NCBI GenBank assembly: GCA_902385255.1
Contig: CABMEV010000003.1
Location: 64,813-128,812 of the forward strand
Origin: Candidatus Tiddalikarchaeum anstoanum
GTDB lineage: Archaea; Nanobdellota; Nanobdellia; Tiddalikarchaeales; Tiddalikarchaeaceae
Direction of reading: 5' to 3'
DNA length: 64,000 nt
Under the pieces are notes generated by a model, which made no database searches, was not told the origin of the DNA, and was given only the letters and a program-made list of their open reading frames with translations. The translations under genes were made by a program, and so were the position numbers. How positions within the stretch are numbered: the first letter of the stretch is position 1; every line of letters starts with the position of its first letter. Positions 7,828 through 16,431 of this stretch are shown one piece after another.

Positions 7828-8538
7828 TTAACTTACACTTACTGTGAAACTGTAAATTTCTGTTTCATTACTGTTTAATACATTGTCTTCTGCAATTATT
7901 TTCCAGTAAATAGTCTCGCCATTGTATCCTGTTGTGTCCCAAGTATAATTAGCCCAGCCGTTTGAGGCGTTGATTAATATTGTTGAATTGTCAATCCAAG
8001 TTCCGGAATGGTTTGTCTGCAATTTTGTGCTGTACACGTTGAAGTTGTCTGCCCAGTGGCTGCTGAGAGTTATTACATCTCCAGGAGTAGGGTTAGGATT
8101 TGATTCTGCAATATCAGAATAACTAGGGGCTTTGTTTAATATGCTGAAACTATTGAAATAAGTCTCATTCATGTTATTATTCTTGTCAAAGCCGAAAAAT
8201 TTGTAATAGACGCTGTGGCCTTCATAATCTGGGTTATCAATGATGCGGGTTGTGTTGCTCCATCCGTTATCGAAATTGTTTAGTGTGCTGTTCTCGAAAC
8301 TGTTAGTTATATTCCATTCGAACAAGTAGTAATTAAGCCTTACTTCATCAGTCCAGTAAGCGCTGAAAGCCACGCATTCGTTTATAGCGTTTATACTTGT
8401 TGTGTTTGAGTTGTATTCGCTGTACACTGGCGGGGCAATATCTATTCTGAACTGAAAACTTACGAATCCGTTAGTCTGGGCGAATGAGTAAGGTATTAAT
8501 AATAAAAATAGAACTACTGCTACTACTTGCCTTTTCAT
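7828..8538 (-). CDS. Secreted protein sharing a domain with the C-terminal region of the 9865-11877 product
   Basis: N-terminal signal peptide (MKRQVVAVVLFLLLIPYSFAQ). SSHWADNFNVY ... NGWANYTWDTTGYNGE aligns with SSYWSDNLYLNY ... NGWSNFTFDTAGYGDE in the large Cys-rich protein. Confidence 0.45.
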   Translation of the reverse strand: MKRQVVAVVLFLLLIPYSFAQTNGFVSFQFRIDIAPPVYSEYNSNTTSINAINECVAFSAYWTDEVRLNYYLFEWNITNSFENSTLNNFDNGWSNTTRIIDNPDYEGHSVYYKFFGFDKNNNMNETYFNSFSILNKAPSYSDIAESNPNPTPGDVITLSSHWADNFNVYSTKLQTNHSGTWIDNSTILINASNGWANYTWDTTGYNGETIYWKIIAEDNVLNSNETEIYSFTVSVS

Positions 8539-8587
8539 GTTTCACTTACCTATTTTAAAAAAAAGTTTTAAAAAAAAATAAAAACCT

Positions 8588-9127
8588 TTATGTTGTGTGT
8601 CTTGTACTGCTTACTATTATTGTTCTCTGGAAAGTTGTAGCACCTGTTGCTGTATCATCTGCTGCGATTCTCTGCCATACTTGTACAGTGTCAGCGCCTA
8701 TTGCAGGGATATTATGTGCCCATAATGGTTCTTGGTCTGCATTTGTTAGTGTTAAATAAGCTGAAGCGTTGTATGTTTGCTCATTTCCAATAGCTATTGT
8801 AACACCTGTTGGTGCGGTAGCATTCATTTTGAAGTTTAGGTTTATTGCTACATTTCCATTGTTTGTAATATTCCAGTCACCTTTAACAGCATCTGCACAA
8901 GTGTCGTCAGGTCTTGATGCTATGTCACTTATTAGTGTAATTCCAGGTGAGAATTCTAGTATTCCAGTTTCATTTCCGCCAACTTCACAAAGTGTTGGTA
9001 TTATTATAGTTGTGTCCTCTATGATTTGTACTTGAAATCCTAAATTTCCACCGCCTGCTAATGCGACAGGTAATACGAACAAAACTAGCAGTACTAGCGT
9101 ACTTAATGCTTTGTTCAACGTTTTCAT
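8588..9127 (-). CDS. Secreted protein with signal peptide
   Basis: N-terminal MKTLNKALSTLVLLVLFVLPVALA signal-like segment. Remainder is T/N/A-rich with no recognised motif. Confidence 0.4.
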   Translation of the reverse strand: MKTLNKALSTLVLLVLFVLPVALAGGGNLGFQVQIIEDTTIIIPTLCEVGGNETGILEFSPGITLISDIASRPDDTCADAVKGDWNITNNGNVAINLNFKMNATAPTGVTIAIGNEQTYNASAYLTLTNADQEPLWAHNIPAIGADTVQVWQRIAADDTATGATTFQRTIIVSSTRHTT

Positions 9128-9164
9128 GAATAAGTTAGTTTAGTTCTAGATTTTTAAATCTTTG

Positions 9165-9815
9165 TTATTCTTTATGAGTTACTCTTTTTTTCTTTATTGA
9201 AAAATAACCAATTGCGACTATCACTACTGCCCCAATTCCAATTATTATAAAATTCTCACTTAGAAATGCTTTGACAAGTGTAAATGTCGACGGTGTCCAG
9301 TCCTGAGGAATGACAATACGCATATCTATTACATTGTTCAGTACAAAAGCAGAACCTGTATCTAATTGTATATCAGTTCTAGCGTGAAGTACTTTACCTG
9401 CAGCATATACTTCATTTTCAACTGGGAATGTGAAGTGTACAATTACCGGAATATCTGTATTAGCGGAAACGTTTACCGGGTGGTCGATGCTCGTAATGAA
9501 CTGTGTGGCAGGGTATATTATAGTCTCAGTGTTCCATGTATAATCCTGTTGTTGGACGCTGTGAGTATAGTTGAAAACTTCATCTACTATTAGTCTGAAG
9601 TTGTCGCTTTCATTAAGGCTTGGGCCTGTAACGCAGCAGTAGAATGTTATTTCTCCAGACTGGCCTGGTTCTATATTAGTTCCAGGAGAATTATTAGAAC
9701 AGTGCCATACTAAGTTGCCTGTTTGGTAGCTGCAGGAAGTTGATGATGCTTCGGCGGATAAGACATTGTTTATCCCAAAAAGTGCAATGATTAAAATGGT
9801 GACTAATTTATTCAT
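9165..9815 (-). CDS. Surface protein with N-terminal signal peptide and C-terminal transmembrane anchor
   Basis: N-terminal hydrophobic signal; C-terminal IIIGIGAVVIVAIGYFSI followed by basic KKKRVTHKE tail. Confidence 0.4.
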   Translation of the reverse strand: MNKLVTILIIALFGINNVLSAEASSTSCSYQTGNLVWHCSNNSPGTNIEPGQSGEITFYCCVTGPSLNESDNFRLIVDEVFNYTHSVQQQDYTWNTETIIYPATQFITSIDHPVNVSANTDIPVIVHFTFPVENEVYAAGKVLHARTDIQLDTGSAFVLNNVIDMRIVIPQDWTPSTFTLVKAFLSENFIIIGIGAVVIVAIGYFSIKKKRVTHKE

Positions 9816-9864
9816 TTATCTAACTCCTTTAAAGTATTCACTTTTATTTAATGTTTTTCTTTTT

Positions 9865-11877
9865 TTATATAAGTTCTGACTCAATTTCTATTGAATAATC
9901 CTCTTTTACAGGAGGTACTGCCTCGTTTAGGTCTATCCATACCCATACTTGGCATGTGTTGCCTGGTATCATGTTGTTGCAGAATCCGGCGTTTACGAAA
10001 TTATTATCCAAATACGTGCTGGTTGCAGGATTATTCGAACTGCTTATCTTAATCTGGACGCCGGAAGGAAGAGTATCATTAAGTTTGAACAAGTTATTGA
10101 TGGTTGTTCCAATACCAGTATGAGTAATGTAAAAATCACCAAGGGAAACAGTGCTCACTGAATCAACAGCTTTAGCGCTGAAAAGAGGCCTCGCATCACC
10201 CAAGAATTCCAGCAGGTTAGTAATATTACCAACACCCTCCCTCATAATGACACTAATATCAGTCCTCGGAGTGTAAACGTGCACGTTTAAAGGAGTAGTC
10301 TCATCACTATTCCCGGCAAAATCATAAGTCACGAATTTGAAACTAATAACCTCATCACCATAACCTGCAGTGTCAAAAGTGAAATTAGACCAGCCGTTAG
10401 ACGAGCCGGAATAATATTTAACAGCCTCAACAGTCCAACTACCCGTCTTATTGGAAAAAAATTGCGTATAATTCAAGTATAAATTATCACTCCAGTAAGA
10501 GGAAATCTTGACTAAGTCCCCGTCAATTAATGAATTATCACAAGTCGGCGTCAAGTCCTCATAATTAAGATTCGAGTACGAAGGCTTAGTCTTATCAAAC
10601 AAGAACTGCTTCCTGTCAGAGTAACCAGTATTCCCCGCCTCATCAGTACAATAAAACTTCACACCATGCCAGCCCTCGACTAATATGTTAACATAGTTTG
10701 AGTACGTCGCGCCATGATTCACAACCCCGACACTCACATTCGTCGAATCAAGAGTGTAACCGCAGTCCAAAATATTATCAGCATCATCAGTTACGCTGAA
10801 AGAATAATCAACAAGACTAACACTATGCATTGAACTATTAACAGGCAAAGTTGCAGTAACAATAGGAGGCTGGTTATCAACCACACAAGCGCTCGTGAAA
10901 TAATTGCACACAGCACCATTATAACAATTAGCACTGCTCCCGCTGCAAGTGTTAAAACAAACGTTGGAAGCACTATTCCACTTATAATACCCGCAGCTTA
11001 ACCAAGCACATGAATTATCACAGCCTGCACCTACAGTGTTATAACCAATATCATGCCTGTGGCATTCACTGCTAGCCCCGCAGACAGTATCACAAAGCGT
11101 TGTGTCAATAACATTGTCGCATCCGCAATTAGAAGTGCATGCAACATCATCCTTTACTGCATTACCATTATAATCAACTAATCTGTTACTGCCGTCGCAG
11201 TAATCACTTATGCAGACATCACTTGGAACTTTATAATCACACAAAGCATGAGCTCCGAAACTTGCCCTGCACCTAGTCTGGCTGACTTGGCAGTCACTGC
11301 TGCAATAAGCCTCGAACACTGAACCTGTTGATGCAGGATTATTGCTCCAAGCACTCGAACTTTTTTCATCACAGACACTTATAGCTCCGCATCCTAATTC
11401 GCAAAGACCATTACCTGAACCGCTAATAGAAATCCCGCCAGTATAAGACGCATTTTCCAGTTTTCCTGAACATTTCACACAATTCTGAGAACTCGAATCG
11501 CAGTAGCCGACATAATTTAATGCTGTGTCTGTCCTAAAGCCGAATGCAGGGTAGACATTGCACAACCAGCCGTCTCGTCCTGAACAAGCACTAACTTTGT
11601 TTACATCATTGCTGTACGCTTCAGCAACTACATTATTATTTACAGTCTTAATAGTGCCTGAACTCACAGTTCCTGTGCAGACATAAAAATAATACCATGT
11701 TCCCCCAGTATTTACTATATTATTGCATGAGTAATACGCTTGGCTGCCGCTTGCCATAGTATACAATTGGTTGACGCATGTTCCAGGTTTATTCTGCAGC
11801 TCTGCAGAGCACTTATTGGCTGCAAAACAGGAAGGGATTATAATACTTAACAATAACAAGATGATTATTCTTTTCAT
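9865..11877 (-). CDS. Large cysteine-rich secreted protein with C-terminal domains paralogous to the 7828-8538 product
   Basis: Signal peptide (MKRIIILLLLSIIIPSCFA). N-terminal half carries dozens of Cys in a low-complexity C/S/G/N-rich region; C-terminal half shares a domain with the neighbouring secreted protein. Confidence 0.5.
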   Translation of the reverse strand: MKRIIILLLLSIIIPSCFAANKCSAELQNKPGTCVNQLYTMASGSQAYYSCNNIVNTGGTWYYFYVCTGTVSSGTIKTVNNNVVAEAYSNDVNKVSACSGRDGWLCNVYPAFGFRTDTALNYVGYCDSSSQNCVKCSGKLENASYTGGISISGSGNGLCELGCGAISVCDEKSSSAWSNNPASTGSVFEAYCSSDCQVSQTRCRASFGAHALCDYKVPSDVCISDYCDGSNRLVDYNGNAVKDDVACTSNCGCDNVIDTTLCDTVCGASSECHRHDIGYNTVGAGCDNSCAWLSCGYYKWNSASNVCFNTCSGSSANCYNGAVCNYFTSACVVDNQPPIVTATLPVNSSMHSVSLVDYSFSVTDDADNILDCGYTLDSTNVSVGVVNHGATYSNYVNILVEGWHGVKFYCTDEAGNTGYSDRKQFLFDKTKPSYSNLNYEDLTPTCDNSLIDGDLVKISSYWSDNLYLNYTQFFSNKTGSWTVEAVKYYSGSSNGWSNFTFDTAGYGDEVISFKFVTYDFAGNSDETTPLNVHVYTPRTDISVIMREGVGNITNLLEFLGDARPLFSAKAVDSVSTVSLGDFYITHTGIGTTINNLFKLNDTLPSGVQIKISSSNNPATSTYLDNNFVNAGFCNNMIPGNTCQVWVWIDLNEAVPPVKEDYSIEIESELI

Positions 11878-12005: not shown

Positions 12006-14270
12006 ATGTCTGACATTGTAAAGTTTTATTGTAAAGGTTGCGGAGGATACCATACCATACCCAAAGCAGATTTGAAAATTACCCCTGAAACTAAAGTAAC
12101 TACAGGCCAAGTGTTAAGATACAAGACTGACTGCGACTCAGGATGGAATATTTTATTATTCAAAAGAAATGATAATTTAGAATCAGGAGTTCCGACAGAA
12201 GTTGAGTATACAATTCCCGCATTCAGGATAAAAAATAAAGAGAAACCTAAAGCTGAAGAAGTGGAAAAAAAATCTGATTATACAATTGAAACTTTAGACT
12301 CAATACTCAGGCCGTTAAATCCCAAAGAGTACGCGAATAAAGAATTTGCACTCGGTAATGATTACGAAAATATACATTTTAAATATAGAGGGATGACTGG
12401 AGAATTCTACATCGAGGACCCTAAAATATTGAACGATAAAATATATGAAGGAAAAATAGTGTTCGTGCCAACTTCCACACTAAGCCCTGAAGCAGTAAAC
12501 TTAGTAGTCAGCGACATGGAATCATTAAGCTCATCTTATGCAGGAAAAGTGCAGAACTTGTACAAGAAAATGAAAAAGGGCGCTCCTGAAAATATTACTG
12601 TGAACCTGAACTTTGCAGGCTCCGACTCTGAACTAATACTATTCAACGGCGTAAGGGAGAGGCATGAAAATATCTCAAAACTTGAAACAGACACTGATGT
12701 TAAATCAAGGGATTCATTGAAAAAGACGATAATGAAAGCGTCGCTAAAAACAGTAGGAAGACAATTAATACTTTTACCAATACTATCATTAATACCAGGC
12801 GGGCTCATAGTATACACAGGTTACACAATATACTCAATGGGCAGGAATATTTACAACCTGACAAAAGTCGGCACAGAAACTGTACCCAGCATTGATGGTT
12901 TGACAACAAGCATCACTGCTGAATCTTCCGTAATAAACTCTGATGCAGGAAAATTAAATCTCGCCAACTTAGACAATTACATGCTAAGCAATGATTTCAA
13001 ACCTGTTGACGTTGACGGCGACAAGTTCACAGATTATTACGTGAACAATAATGACGCTGCTGATAAAGTATACGACCCTTTTTCCGACAAGAGATTCTTC
13101 GCGGACGGTGCAGTGCCCCAGACTGAACAGGCTAATATGCATAACACTTGGGACACTCTTCAAAATTATGAGTCGCATAAAGGAACGCTTGCAGAACAGC
13201 TACTTAAAGTTGCAGGTCTTAATGACTCTGTTAAATTCTTCACAGACTTAACAATAGGCTTAGCGATAACAGTAGGAGGCATACTCATAACTTACGGTAT
13301 AAGTTATGCGGTGCACGTCAAGAAGACAGGTTCGAAGATAATGGCGTTAAACCGCAAAGAACTGGCCAAGTTTTACTCAAATTCAAAATTGTCATTAAAG
13401 ACTGCTGAATTAAAGCCTGAAACGGACAATACACTCTCTGAACTAAAAAGTGTTACCTCAGAACTGACTGAGAAGAAAAACTTGTTGTTAACTTATGAGG
13501 GGAGAAAATTGGAGCTAGACAGACTACTCTCCTCCAAGAAAGAAGTTGAAGGAAAAACATTAACATTGGACGGCTTTATCAATACCAAATCGAAAGAATT
13601 ACAAGAGTATACTACTTACCTACTGGAGCAGGAACAGTATACAAAAGATACGCCTGCTTTTTTATCACTTATCAGAACTGCCTTTGATGAAGTAACTCAG
13701 AGCGAGAATACAACAAAGGATGTTAGTGACGAACAATTCTTGGAAGAGATAGTGATTCCAAAGAAGGATACTATAGTGTCAAAATTCACATTTGATTCAT
13801 TATCTTCAGCAGAAGGCATGGGTGATGTGGCAGCAAGGCGCAAGTACGTAGGCGATTATATTGATTACTTATCAAAAATTAACGATGTTAAAGGCAAGAA
13901 GAAAAAAGTTGAACAAGACCTTGAGAGACTAAACAATGAAAAAGCCGCGTTGTCATCTTCCGGAAGCACAGTGAAGAACAGCTCTGAACTTGTAGAATTG
14001 ACGACATCAATTAGCAACCTGACTAATGAGGTGCAGTCTTTAACGCTGAATCAGAACTTGCTGAATAACAGGCAGAGCAGCAAGAATAACTTATTATACA
14101 AGCATTTACTGAACGATCCTCAGCTGATATTCACGAAGGATTATGAAAACCTGCCTGGGAAGAATGAGATTATGAATTTCGTAAGCGAAGGAATCACAAA
14201 CGGGGATTTAGGCAGGGCTAAGAAAGAACTGGGCAAGTATTGCAGGAAGAATAATATACCAATCGTATAA
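12006..14270 (+). CDS. Membrane protein with N-terminal zinc-ribbon-like CxxC pair, two TM helices and a C-terminal coiled-coil region
   Basis: N-terminus FYCKGCGGYH...KTDCDSGW; hydrophobic segments LILLPILSLIPGGLIVYTGYTIY and LTIGLAITVGGILITYGISYAV; K/E/L-rich heptad-like C-terminal half. Confidence 0.4.
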   Translation: MSDIVKFYCKGCGGYHTIPKADLKITPETKVTTGQVLRYKTDCDSGWNILLFKRNDNLESGVPTEVEYTIPAFRIKNKEKPKAEEVEKKSDYTIETLDSILRPLNPKEYANKEFALGNDYENIHFKYRGMTGEFYIEDPKILNDKIYEGKIVFVPTSTLSPEAVNLVVSDMESLSSSYAGKVQNLYKKMKKGAPENITVNLNFAGSDSELILFNGVRERHENISKLETDTDVKSRDSLKKTIMKASLKTVGRQLILLPILSLIPGGLIVYTGYTIYSMGRNIYNLTKVGTETVPSIDGLTTSITAESSVINSDAGKLNLANLDNYMLSNDFKPVDVDGDKFTDYYVNNNDAADKVYDPFSDKRFFADGAVPQTEQANMHNTWDTLQNYESHKGTLAEQLLKVAGLNDSVKFFTDLTIGLAITVGGILITYGISYAVHVKKTGSKIMALNRKELAKFYSNSKLSLKTAELKPETDNTLSELKSVTSELTEKKNLLLTYEGRKLELDRLLSSKKEVEGKTLTLDGFINTKSKELQEYTTYLLEQEQYTKDTPAFLSLIRTAFDEVTQSENTTKDVSDEQFLEEIVIPKKDTIVSKFTFDSLSSAEGMGDVAARRKYVGDYIDYLSKINDVKGKKKKVEQDLERLNNEKAALSSSGSTVKNSSELVELTTSISNLTNEVQSLTLNQNLLNNRQSSKNNLLYKHLLNDPQLIFTKDYENLPGKNEIMNFVSEGITNGDLGRAKKELGKYCRKNNIPIV

Positions 14271-14355
14271 CTGGGATGCCCAAGTTTGCAGTAACTAGAT
14301 AGTAGGAGATAAAGTATTTAAAAAAGATAGTAATATATGAAGGTGAATTTAAACG

Positions 14356-16431
14356 ATGAGTGAACAAGTATTTGATTATGCAAACAAGGCAGGACTGGTT
14401 GAGATTTTACAACAGCCTGAATATGTTAACAAATGGGGCTCGTCAAATCCGAGCGGTATAAGCCCTAATTCTTATTTTGAGCCAGGAACCGCTGACACTT
14501 ATTCAAAACTTGTTAATTATATAGTTGATAATTTTAACGTCAAGACTGTTAAAGATGTGGAACTAATGTTCCAAAGGGCTAAGATTATTTATAATTTCAT
14601 CGGGGAAGCAAATATTCAGGTTATGCAGAACCAGACTCTTGGAAAAAAAAGCCTTCAAATTTTTGATTTAGGGGGACAGGATAGGTACAGATTCCTGCAG
14701 TCAGGCTATTCTGAAGGTGCGAATATAGGCGTATTAGTGCTGCCTTCCAATGAATTATTGGATTACTTGAAGGATTCCACTTTAAGCAATCCTGAACAAC
14801 TTCTTATAAACTTTTTTTATACTATAGTATTAAATTCCAAGGGAAAAGTCAGATTTGAAAACTTATTATTAGTTAAAACAAAAAAGGATGGTATTATTAC
14901 CAATTACACAATTGAAGACCTGCGTCAATTATATGAAAGGGAAGAGTTTGACAGGACTAATCCTGAAGGTTTAATAGCCAGGATTTTAAGATTATACGAT
15001 GCAAATTACGTTTTAGAGAATGCTGAAACTTTTGTTGATGCAATTGTTAATGAGACTTTTCAGAGGGATGCAAAAGATTTAGACTCATTGTCTGAAGAAG
15101 AGCAGCAGAGAATACTAACTGAGAAGCTTGATAATGCAAAATATGAAGCGTTAGAATCAGTTAAGTACTGGGTCAGGCTTCTTAAGTCAAAAGATGCAGG
15201 CTTCGTAGCCGCAAACTTGAATGATTACGCATTGGATGTTAAAAAATTATTATTAAACTCGGATGAGGATATTAAAAGTATAAATTCCAGGATAAAAGCT
15301 GTGAAGGATTTATTGGAAGAGTATACAAGCAATGAGAAATATTTCAAGGGCAATGAGAAGGACAGGGCCAGGCTTCCTGAACTAATAAGTGCTGGCGTTA
15401 AAAAGCAAATTGCCAAGCTTGATGAAATCTATTCTGACAAGACCAGTAAAGAATACTTAGCCCAGAAAGATGCGCTTGTAAGTTCTGTAACTTTGGACTT
15501 GGAGAAGAGGATAGAATCTCAGATTTTAGGGGGCAAAAAGCTTTACATATCAACTAAGCAGAAATTTGTTGAAAAATTAGGGGATGAGGAAGCTAAGACT
15601 GCGCTTAAGGATTTTGAGGCAAAATTTGCGGAAGATATGAAGAGTACTCATAATTATCTTGATGAGAAGATAAAACTTCTGAATTCATTTAATGTTAATG
15701 TTGAACACGTACTTTCTGAACAAGCTGCTTCATTCCAGCCTCAGCTTGACGCGGATACTGTAATACTCGGAGCTAAAGCCAAAAAAATAGTTGAAAAATA
15801 CGTTGAAGCATTGAAGGCTAAGTCTGACATTAGCAGAGTCGAAGAGTTTAAGCTTATACGCGAAGGACCTATGAAACCTGAATTTTTAGGAAGCTGTTTC
15901 TCCTCGATTTATTACTCGATTGACGCTTTCCCTCCGATAGACTTGATAAGGTTCAAGTTTTTGACTAATTATTCACCAACAATCATACAGCAGAAAGTTT
16001 CAGTAATGGGAAGGGGCGGCGCTGGAAAAACAGCTATGGCCAAGAAAATAGAGGCGAATACTTACATTGAAGATATTTCGAGCACGCCTATTAATGCCAA
16101 GACTCCTAGCGAAGCTGCAGAGATTGAACTAACCAGGGCAGAAAACATTAAAAATTATAAGAAAAAAATATATTCAACCACTACGACTGTAGGCATAGAT
16201 ATTGCAACATCCAAAGTTCACCCTAACATATTGAACAGCAATGGATTCCTGTCAAAGGAGAAAATATTCGCCCTTGCAGGATGCATGTTCCCGGCAACAT
16301 ACAGCATGGAACTTCCTGAAGGAGTGGATGCTGAAGCGTTCTATGGTAAATCTTTCCAGATAAGGCCTGAGGTTGATTTCGACAAGTGCGACGATTTAGT
16401 GGCTGAAGCAGAGCAGCTTTCATCACCCTAA
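14356..16431 (+). CDS. Large protein with Ras-superfamily GTPase-like motifs in permuted order (G3/G4-like at N-terminus, P-loop/switch-I-like at C-terminus)
   Basis: N-terminal LQIFDLGGQDRYRFL...LLLVKTKKDG resembles Rab LQIWDTAGQERFR...LVGNKCD. C-terminal VMGRGGAGKTAMAKKIEANTYIEDISST...TVGIDIATSKV resembles GDSGVGKS...TY.E.YIST.IGVDF. Central ~400 aa are K/E-rich helical. Confidence 0.45.
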   Translation: MSEQVFDYANKAGLVEILQQPEYVNKWGSSNPSGISPNSYFEPGTADTYSKLVNYIVDNFNVKTVKDVELMFQRAKIIYNFIGEANIQVMQNQTLGKKSLQIFDLGGQDRYRFLQSGYSEGANIGVLVLPSNELLDYLKDSTLSNPEQLLINFFYTIVLNSKGKVRFENLLLVKTKKDGIITNYTIEDLRQLYEREEFDRTNPEGLIARILRLYDANYVLENAETFVDAIVNETFQRDAKDLDSLSEEEQQRILTEKLDNAKYEALESVKYWVRLLKSKDAGFVAANLNDYALDVKKLLLNSDEDIKSINSRIKAVKDLLEEYTSNEKYFKGNEKDRARLPELISAGVKKQIAKLDEIYSDKTSKEYLAQKDALVSSVTLDLEKRIESQILGGKKLYISTKQKFVEKLGDEEAKTALKDFEAKFAEDMKSTHNYLDEKIKLLNSFNVNVEHVLSEQAASFQPQLDADTVILGAKAKKIVEKYVEALKAKSDISRVEEFKLIREGPMKPEFLGSCFSSIYYSIDAFPPIDLIRFKFLTNYSPTIIQQKVSVMGRGGAGKTAMAKKIEANTYIEDISSTPINAKTPSEAAEIELTRAENIKNYKKKIYSTTTTVGIDIATSKVHPNILNSNGFLSKEKIFALAGCMFPATYSMELPEGVDAEAFYGKSFQIRPEVDFDKCDDLVAEAEQLSSP

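Follow-up and report, generated by a model that had tools for sequence, protein, structure and literature searches.

Can a Ras-like GTPase be built from two halves that lie at opposite ends of a long polypeptide? The question is raised by an open reading frame in the window analyzed here, a 64,000-nucleotide stretch of the genome of Candidatus Tiddalikarchaeum anstoanum, in which a single 691-residue protein carries G3 and G4 motifs near its N-terminus and a P-loop and a switch I-like segment toward its C-terminus, with a K/E-rich helical region in between. A sequence-only reading of this DNA had singled out the open reading frame, described the permuted motif order, and proposed that tandem duplication and truncation had left a split GTPase whose halves reassemble. 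The open reading frame is confirmed, and so is the order G3-G4 ... G1-G2, with the two ends behaving as complementary halves of one Ras-like profile in scans of designed constructs; the proposed duplication finds no support in the sequence. We favor, with about even confidence, a single composite, permuted Ras-like G domain that would form in cis, with a helical stalk joining its halves, and that would work with a Zn-ribbon membrane partner.

Complementary halves of a Ras-like domain

The protein is 100% identical to VVB74565.1 of Ca. Tiddalikarchaeum anstoanum, whose genome is a Nanoarchaeota (DPANN) metagenome-assembled genome (MAG) of the order CG07-land, and the paper describing that genome does not discuss it. 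The only name given to it in public databases, "Ras of Complex, Roc, domain of DAPkinase", is misleading, as Roc is only the best-matching Pfam profile, the order of the motifs is permuted, and the protein gives no Pfam match to COR, the domain that follows Roc in Roco proteins.

All of the motifs quoted in the sequence-only reading were located in the protein. The G3 motif lies within LQIFDLGGQDRYRFL (residues 100–114), G4 lies within LLLVKTKKDG (residues 170–179), and G1, the P-loop, lies within VMGRGGAGKTAMAKKI (residues 550–565), followed by TYIEDISST (residues 569–577, the segment quoted as TY.E..IST) and TVGIDIATSKV (residues 611–621). With G3 and G4 at residues 104–178 and G1 and G2 at residues 552–621, the chain departs from the canonical contiguous order G1-G2-G3-G4-G5. 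Two of the original measurements needed correction: the P-loop is not at the extreme C-terminus but about 140 residues from it, and the helical stretch, first put at about 400 residues, spans about 270–320. A regular-expression scan of the protein finds a single DxxG, a single [NT]KxD, and a single conserved Walker A motif; a second Walker A match, AEAFYGKS at residue 659, is taken as chance because it is not conserved in P0002, the only relative found.

The lack of a P-loop at the N-terminus was also borne out, in that no remnant was detected and the open reading frame cannot be extended upstream. Several in-frame stops lie immediately 5′ of the ATG, and these, together with the Shine-Dalgarno-like site that precedes it (Table 1), exclude a P-loop hidden in a longer N-terminus. 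The remaining motifs are less clear-cut. TKKD is the putative G4 by motif, context, and spacing, LLLVKTKKD being comparable in context to KLLVGNKSD of Rab1, and it lies beyond the reach of the Pfam profile alignment. In the candidate switch I, a run of threonines (residues 608–611) is followed by VGIDI, which fits the pattern TIGxDF, and one of these threonines aligns with that of TIE in P0002. No clear SAK-like G5 was found in the protein; YDAN at residues 214–217 is a guess from context.

In a Pfam scan of the whole protein, Roc (PF08477; gathering cut-off 27 bits) scored 34.1 bits (E = 3.6e-8), passing its cut-off, and Ras (PF00071; gathering cut-off 21.6 bits) scored 21.6 bits, exactly at its cut-off. 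The Roc score is made up of two stretches in reversed order, with residues 86–132 matching profile positions 43–90 and residues 547–606 matching positions 1–61. The NCBIfam model TIGR00231 (small_GTP) matches the C-terminal P-loop in both the 691-residue protein and P0002. Given the Roc score above cut-off, the small_GTP match, and the recurrence of the layout in an independent MAG, the resemblance of the motifs to those of small GTPases is significant.

The joining of the N and C parts was examined with designed constructs scanned against Pfam. The N part alone (residues 1–238) scored 22.6 bits with Roc, over profile positions 43–90, and 15.7 bits with Ras. The C part alone scored 15.8–19.1 bits with Roc and, in the insert-deleted construct only, 14.2 bits with Ras, the alignment of that construct ending at profile position 42. 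In native order with the coil removed, the two parts scored 32.5 bits with Roc and 24.1 bits with Ras, as two stretches. Placing residues 541–577 of the C part before residues 78–238 of the N part gave 44.1 and 35.5 bits, respectively, in one stretch that spans Roc positions 1–90 and Ras positions 1–78. Placing residues 541–577 and 607–629 before residues 96–238 gave 46.5 and 35.9 bits, again in one stretch, and this construct also matched Gtr1/RagA at 25.0 bits, above cut-off, and Arf at 22.0 bits. When the C part's own ALAGC was instead joined to β4 of the N part, Roc scored 18.1 bits and Ras 12.9 bits and the alignment ended at position 41–42; substitution of ALAGC for G3 abolishes the extension of the profile.

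Used as a profile, the N part aligns with Rab1B and Rab11 from G3 onward, and its first 103 residues, used in the same way against the PDB, match no GTPase. No similarity was found between the N and C parts (hhalign E = 0.84; BLAST of N against C likewise returned nothing), and no recognizable G3 or G4 was found at the C end. It is the dissimilarity of the two parts and the lack of a GTPase match to residues 1–103 that leave an origin by tandem duplication and truncation without sequence support. By every profile test, each end carries one half of a Ras-like domain and not the other, which is good evidence that the two ends are complementary in content.

The only relative and the gene neighborhood

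Run exhaustively over 1.84 billion representative proteins (E ≤ 1e-3), phmmer returned only the query and P0002 (MBN1923358.1; 615 residues; E = 6e-15), which comes from another Nanoarchaeota MAG and is the one ortholog of the same architecture that was found. Its layout matches that of the query, with DLAGQ and TKFD close to the N-terminus, followed by a helical region and by GRGAAGKS, such that G1 (GxxxxGK[ST]), G3 (DxxG), and G4 ([NT]KxD) are present in both proteins. The two are 28.5% identical over aligned positions, and the housekeeping genes that flank both loci are 57–72% identical. Despite this divergence, the two proteins agree at each of the 11 core positions of G1, G3, and G4 (naive P of about 1e-6 against the 28.5% background). 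Such invariance in an otherwise fast-diverging protein points to purifying selection on the three motifs and would imply that a single nucleotide site needing all of them is under selection. The helical region is far shorter in P0002, which has an additional coil of 95 residues at its C-terminus.

Further searches did not enlarge the family. Word-indexed homolog searches with the whole protein, the family alignment, and the de-permuted construct either came back empty or retrieved the query alone, and metagenome scans with peptide patterns from the C part and with a degenerate DNA pattern for PEG[VI]DxE[AV]F found no further member. A phage-like contig (L106) shares a short motif only and was rejected as a member. 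A scan of genomes for further loci returned only the locus of P0002, referred to here as L001.

The gene had been described as flanked by a Zn-ribbon membrane protein and MCM, and this holds in the window, upstream and downstream, respectively. Synteny with MCM is not conserved at L001, the only related locus, and the linkage was therefore rejected as a functional clue. The Zn-ribbon gene, in contrast, is retained: in L001, a Zn-ribbon homolog lies upstream of each of two G-like genes, one encoding P0002 and the other a 514-residue protein. The partner in the window has an N-terminal CxxC Zn-ribbon-like region, two transmembrane segments (about 250–273 and 411–436) on either side of a loop that carries a DxDGD motif, and a coiled coil at its C-terminus. 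Within this family of three Zn-ribbon proteins, two have two transmembrane segments and an extracytoplasmic DxDGD/DxDSDG loop and one is soluble; all three share the C-terminal motif LL.[DH]P[QE].IF[TS]..YE[ND], and for none of them did Pfam or NCBIfam give a match, or PADLOC a significant one.

Synteny between the two MAGs extends to three genes for secreted Cys-rich proteins (44–48% identity), which are transcribed divergently from the Zn-ribbon/G-like pair. The minus-strand stretches in question (7828–11877 in the window; L001:119–3412) hold three to four genes for secreted, Cys-rich, Ig-like-containing surface proteins of at most 670 residues. On the basis of the synteny with L001, the conserved unit consists of the Zn-ribbon membrane coiled-coil protein and the G-like coiled-coil protein beside surface-protein genes. 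An exosome/proteasome cluster follows the P0002 gene directly in L001 and lies 34 kb away in the window, and this difference points to a rearrangement or insertion between the lineages. This stretch of about 34 kb (16432–50386) carries MCM, an RPA-like OB protein, aIF2-beta, and DUF424 ahead of the exosome/proteasome/ribosomal cluster. PADLOC gave no match for the 691-residue protein, P0002, or the partner gene in the window, and only insignificant ZorA matches (E = 0.02–0.06) for one Zn-ribbon paralog of L001; NCBIfam gave no system-level assignment.

The 514-residue protein of L001 contains a tandem repeat (residues 54–225 against 288–483, E = 5e-18), each unit of which comprises a hydrophobic strand with TKxD (VVTKTD, VATKID), a linker, and a P-loop-like site (NKGAGKK mid-protein, HKGSVGKT near the C-terminus). 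By eye, the protein starts and ends mid-domain, like two permuted units in tandem. It was considered as a "Rosetta stone" and rejected, as neither a G-domain nature nor a kinship is statistically supported: Pfam, hhalign, hmmsearch, a PDB profile search, and shuffling gave no significant result for it as a G domain or as kin of the 691-residue protein or P0002.

The elements along the 691-residue chain are listed with the neighboring genes in Table 1. The G-domain body runs from a β2-like strand through β3, G3, switch II, β4, α3, β5, and the putative G4 to an α5-like segment, NAETFVDAIVNE, which resembles helix 5 by context and continues into the helical region. A crude heptad scan of the latter shows several coiled-coil-like segments and a central break near P341 (nucleotides 15364–15396). 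Approximately 306 residues (239–544) separate the α5-like helix from β1. The front half comprises β1, the P-loop, α1, a helical insert of about 30 residues (578–607), the threonine run with TVGIDI, and β2. In the C-terminal tail, the block P646–E672, with the pattern P..Y....PEG.D.E.F..K.F..RPE, is strongly conserved, more so than any other block of the C part. This block (nucleotides 16291–16371), LPEGVDAEAFYGKSFQIRPE, has a likeness to a ubiquitin-binding motif, that of DNA polymerase iota (2mbb/2kwv, LPEGVDQEVFKQLPVDIQEE); the match is short, with a profile E of 0.03 against the PDB, and was set aside as probably due to chance.

Table 1. Features of the 691-residue protein, with neighboring genes in the window and at L001 (coordinates without a prefix are window positions)
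Feature	Position	Strand	Remarks
Upstream partner gene, 754 aa	12006..14270	+	85-nt gap to 14356–16431
GGTGA, Shine-Dalgarno-like site	14342..14346	+	9 nt upstream of ATG
Whole open reading frame, 691 aa	14356..16431	+	cytoplasmic, no transmembrane segment
N-terminal extension, residues 1–82	14356..14601	+	partly conserved (Y49, L52, V53, V62, T64, D67-V68-E69, R74, K76, Y79); no GTPase-like match
G-domain body, residues 83–238	14602..15069	+	matches Roc profile 43–90, Ras 33–78
G3/Walker B DLGGQ, residues 104–108	14665..14679	+	D, L, G, Q invariant vs DLAGQ in P0002
Putative G4 TKKD, residues 175–178	14878..14889	+	T, K, D invariant vs TKFD in P0002
Helical K/E-rich region, residues 239–506 (~268 residues)	15070..15873	+	heptad-like segments
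Conserved segment before β1, residues 507–544 (PEFLGSCFSSIYYSI...)	15874..15987	+	14/38 positions invariant
Front half of G domain, residues 545–629	15988..16242	+	matches Roc/Ras profile 1–42, TIGR00231 4–33
G1/P-loop GRGGAGKT, residues 552–559	16009..16032	+	GRGAAGKS in P0002
Candidate G2/switch I Thr (T608–T611) and amphipathic β2 TVGIDIATSKV	16177..16218	+	TIEKIELTTKV in P0002
C-terminal tail, residues 630–691	16243..16431	+	degenerate G3-like KIFALAGC, unrecognized by profiles
Zn-ribbon gene, 1026 aa, two transmembrane segments	L001:3528–6608	+	E = 9e-9 to window protein; precedes 514-aa open reading frame
514-aa open reading frame between two Zn-ribbon genes	L001:6659–8203	+	internal tandem repeat
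Zn-ribbon gene, 520 aa, soluble	L001:8272–9834	+	E = 1e-5; precedes P0002

A proposed composite domain and its alternatives

From these observations we infer physical reassembly of the two ends, GTP binding, the geometry of a stalk, and an interaction with the partner. The permutation point of such a composite domain would be at or near the β2/β3 hairpin, yielding the order G3-G4-(G5)...G1-G2 as in the eukaryotic cpRAS proteins, which establish that such an order exists in nature (PMC2430557). The K/E-rich helical region would fold back as a hairpin or stalk, allowing both ends to pack into one nucleotide-binding domain, and the central break near P341 is compatible with a hairpin. The C-terminal β1, P-loop, α1, and switch I would bind the phosphates and Mg, and in the N-terminal body DxxGQ would sense the γ-phosphate and TKxD would give guanine specificity. 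As the protein is cytoplasmic and its pairing with a Zn-ribbon gene is kept in the one other genome where the family occurs, we propose that it may serve as a switch or scaffold under the control of GTP, acting on the coiled coil that the 12006–14270 product would extend into the cytoplasm, beside the surface-protein genes.

Several observations weigh against a single composite domain. Colinear joining lifts the Roc score by only a few bits beyond what the separate parts add up to (22.6 plus 15.8–19.1 bits) and hence speaks for complementarity of coverage and not for contact. The profile alignments end at β4, and G4 and G5 are placed by motif and context only. P0002 has no significant Pfam match, and the family consists of two divergent members only. 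AlphaFold2 yielded a mean predicted local distance difference test score of 36.9 from the single sequence and 35.2 from the two-sequence alignment, such that both models are unusable; a deeper alignment was not available for structure prediction because the homolog and metagenome searches had found no further members. The length of the stalk is not conserved, which, with the extra coil of P0002, complicates a simple fold-back model. Finally, the N part has a β2-like strand of its own and about 82 partly conserved residues before G3, and the C part has its own β3-like hydrophobic strand and a conserved 60-residue tail, features for which simple permutation is inadequate. The conserved 38-residue segment before β1 is another feature beyond simple permutation.

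The additional strands, the N-terminal residues, and the tail are accommodated if the ends are two independent degenerate modules that share no site, an N-terminal pseudo-GTPase with a decayed P-loop and a C-terminal P-loop unit with a decayed G3/G4, as might result from complementary decay of a tandem duplicate in a Miro-like "G domain–spacer–G domain" protein. We regard this as possible but doubtful. Pfam Ras aligns with the N part from profile position 33, the phmmer alignment with Rab27B reaches back to residue 52, in the α1/switch I region, and on the C-terminal side, where KIFALAGC follows β2 as a β3-like strand, a HMMER alignment with Arf1 can be stretched over most of the C part. The Arf1 extension, however, adds only about 1 bit (E = 0.4–1) and places a charged helix at the buried β3/β4 strands, for which reasons the C part was rejected as a complete, compact Arf-like domain. 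Its G3-like site is not conserved (ALAGC against ATAAE in P0002), residues 1–103 hold no detectable remnant of G1, and the two parts are mutually dissimilar. Two separate modules would, moreover, require separate explanations for an invariant G3/G4 that lacks a P-loop and an invariant P-loop that lacks G3/G4.

Complementation in trans, in which the P-loop half of one molecule would complete the G3/G4 body of another, strikes us as unlikely. It would produce either antiparallel dimers, both ends of which would carry a composite G domain, or a GTP-gated head-to-tail polymer, and it draws on the same complementarity and conservation as the composite domain in cis. A long spacer of variable length and the extra C-terminal coil of P0002 sit more comfortably with pairing between molecules than with a strict hairpin, and the 514-residue protein, whose repeat unit runs from TKxD to a P-loop, starts and ends mid-unit, a layout that would leave unpaired terminal halves. 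That protein, however, has no statistically supported link to G domains or to the family studied here, the break near P341 fits an intramolecular hairpin, and the predicted oligomerization has no direct support. Least probable of all is that the motifs are relics in a coiled-coil structural protein that binds no nucleotide, which would suit the lack of a significant Pfam GTPase match in P0002, the failure to identify G5, and the fast evolution of the protein (about 29% identity against 57–72% for its housekeeping neighbors) but runs counter to the 11 of 11 invariant core positions, a signature of purifying selection.

Relation to known permuted and split P-loop proteins

Circularly permuted GTPases of the YlqF/RsgA type are ribosome-assembly factors without a long helical insertion. 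In YlqF/YawG and RsgA (YjeQ), the motifs follow the order G4-G5-G1-G2-G3, the chain being broken between strand 3 and helix 2 (PMC2430557). These enzymes are circularly permuted P-loop GTPases that remain folded and functional, and they show that a link from helix 5 to strand 1 is possible; in the 691-residue protein G3 precedes G4 at the N-terminus and the order G4-G5-G1-G2-G3 is not found. The sequence-only reading had regarded the motif order as unlike that of known permuted GTPases; this stands with respect to YlqF/RsgA, but the order has been known since 2008 from the eukaryotic cpRAS (PMC2430557).

In cpRAS (Elias & Novotny 2008, Biol Direct 3:21), the order is G3-G4-G5-G1-G2 with the break at the β2/β3 turn, strand 1-helix 1-strand 2 comes directly after helix 5, and the domain, reported only in eukaryotes, is combined with VWA or COG2373/macroglobulin-like regions (PMC2430557). 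No report of cpRAS in prokaryotes was found in the later literature searched. Common to cpRAS and the 691-residue protein are the order of the motifs and a break in or near the β2/β3 turn, and in both cases a Ras-like domain lies inside a larger protein with a poorly characterized N-terminal stretch in front. The 691-residue protein differs in that its host is a DPANN archaeon and not a eukaryote, that about 270 helical residues and the 38-residue segment intervene between helix 5 and strand 1, and that Pfam detects no VWA or macroglobulin domain in it. Compared with the RAS family proper, the best profile is Roc, followed by Ras, and G2 reads TVG in the 691-residue protein and TIE in P0002. 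No cpRAS protein was among the results of the exhaustive phmmer search, the CPRas sequences not having been compared directly. We do not file the protein as a member of the cpRAS family, since it has the motif order and fails on the other features; it is probably a second, independent permuted Ras-like domain with the cpRAS order, carrying in addition a long helical stalk at the junction. New relative to cpRAS are the archaeal host, the lack of detectable kinship, and the helical insertion of about 270 residues.

The placement of P-loop NTPase halves at opposite ends of a chain, with a long helical spacer between them, is reminiscent of SMC, Rad50, and MukB, which are ABC ATPases with an N-terminal Walker A and a C-terminal Walker B whose head halves are joined by a coiled coil that folds back. 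The protein described here differs in being Ras-like, in having the halves in the opposite order, and in that its fold-back is a prediction. The canonical archaeal small GTPases, which include the Asgard Rab/Arf-like proteins and ArvA, have the canonical order, a length of about 180–200 residues, and no stalk. The best single matches to the G3 region are Thorarchaeota Rab, Rab1, and Rab11, and those to the P-loop are Arf-like proteins. ArvA occurs in Euryarchaeota and DPANN, and its partner ArvC carries a zinc finger (PMC10927574), a likeness to the Zn-binding partner gene near 14356–16431. An identity with the ArvA/ArvB/ArvC vesiculation module was rejected, as Arf is below cut-off for the native protein and no neighbor has DUF2073 (ArvB) or DUF2072 (ArvC).

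Anand and colleagues argued that a break in the β2/β3 turn of a GTPase should prevent folding (quoted in PMC2430557), and cpRAS is the single counter-example, confined to eukaryotes (PMC2430557). The architecture described here is real, conserved, and unusual, and it would take this motif order beyond eukaryotes for the first time. If, as the sequence suggests, the two ends form a single site, a second, apparently independent occurrence in an archaeon would make permutation at β2/β3 a recurrent solution. The long spacer further suggests a use of the G domain that is unknown among Ras-like proteins, the nucleotide-dependent joining of distant ends of a chain, comparable to SMC/Rad50. Very tentatively, and with low confidence, we picture a GTP-gated clasp. 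No G domain with the cpRAS order would have been known from prokaryotes before it, and it would also be the first whose halves are held apart by a long coiled coil. By bridging the C-terminal P-loop half and the N-terminal G3/G4 half, GTP might shut a single molecule into a loop (in cis) or join molecules head to tail (in trans) under the membrane, and the Zn-ribbon protein with two transmembrane segments and the secreted Cys-rich proteins might be its partners, perhaps in a cell-surface or attachment apparatus of an episymbiotic DPANN archaeon. The 691-residue protein and P0002 represent a conserved, fast-evolving partner of an uncharacterized membrane protein of DPANN archaea, organisms about whose cell biology and attachment to hosts little is understood.

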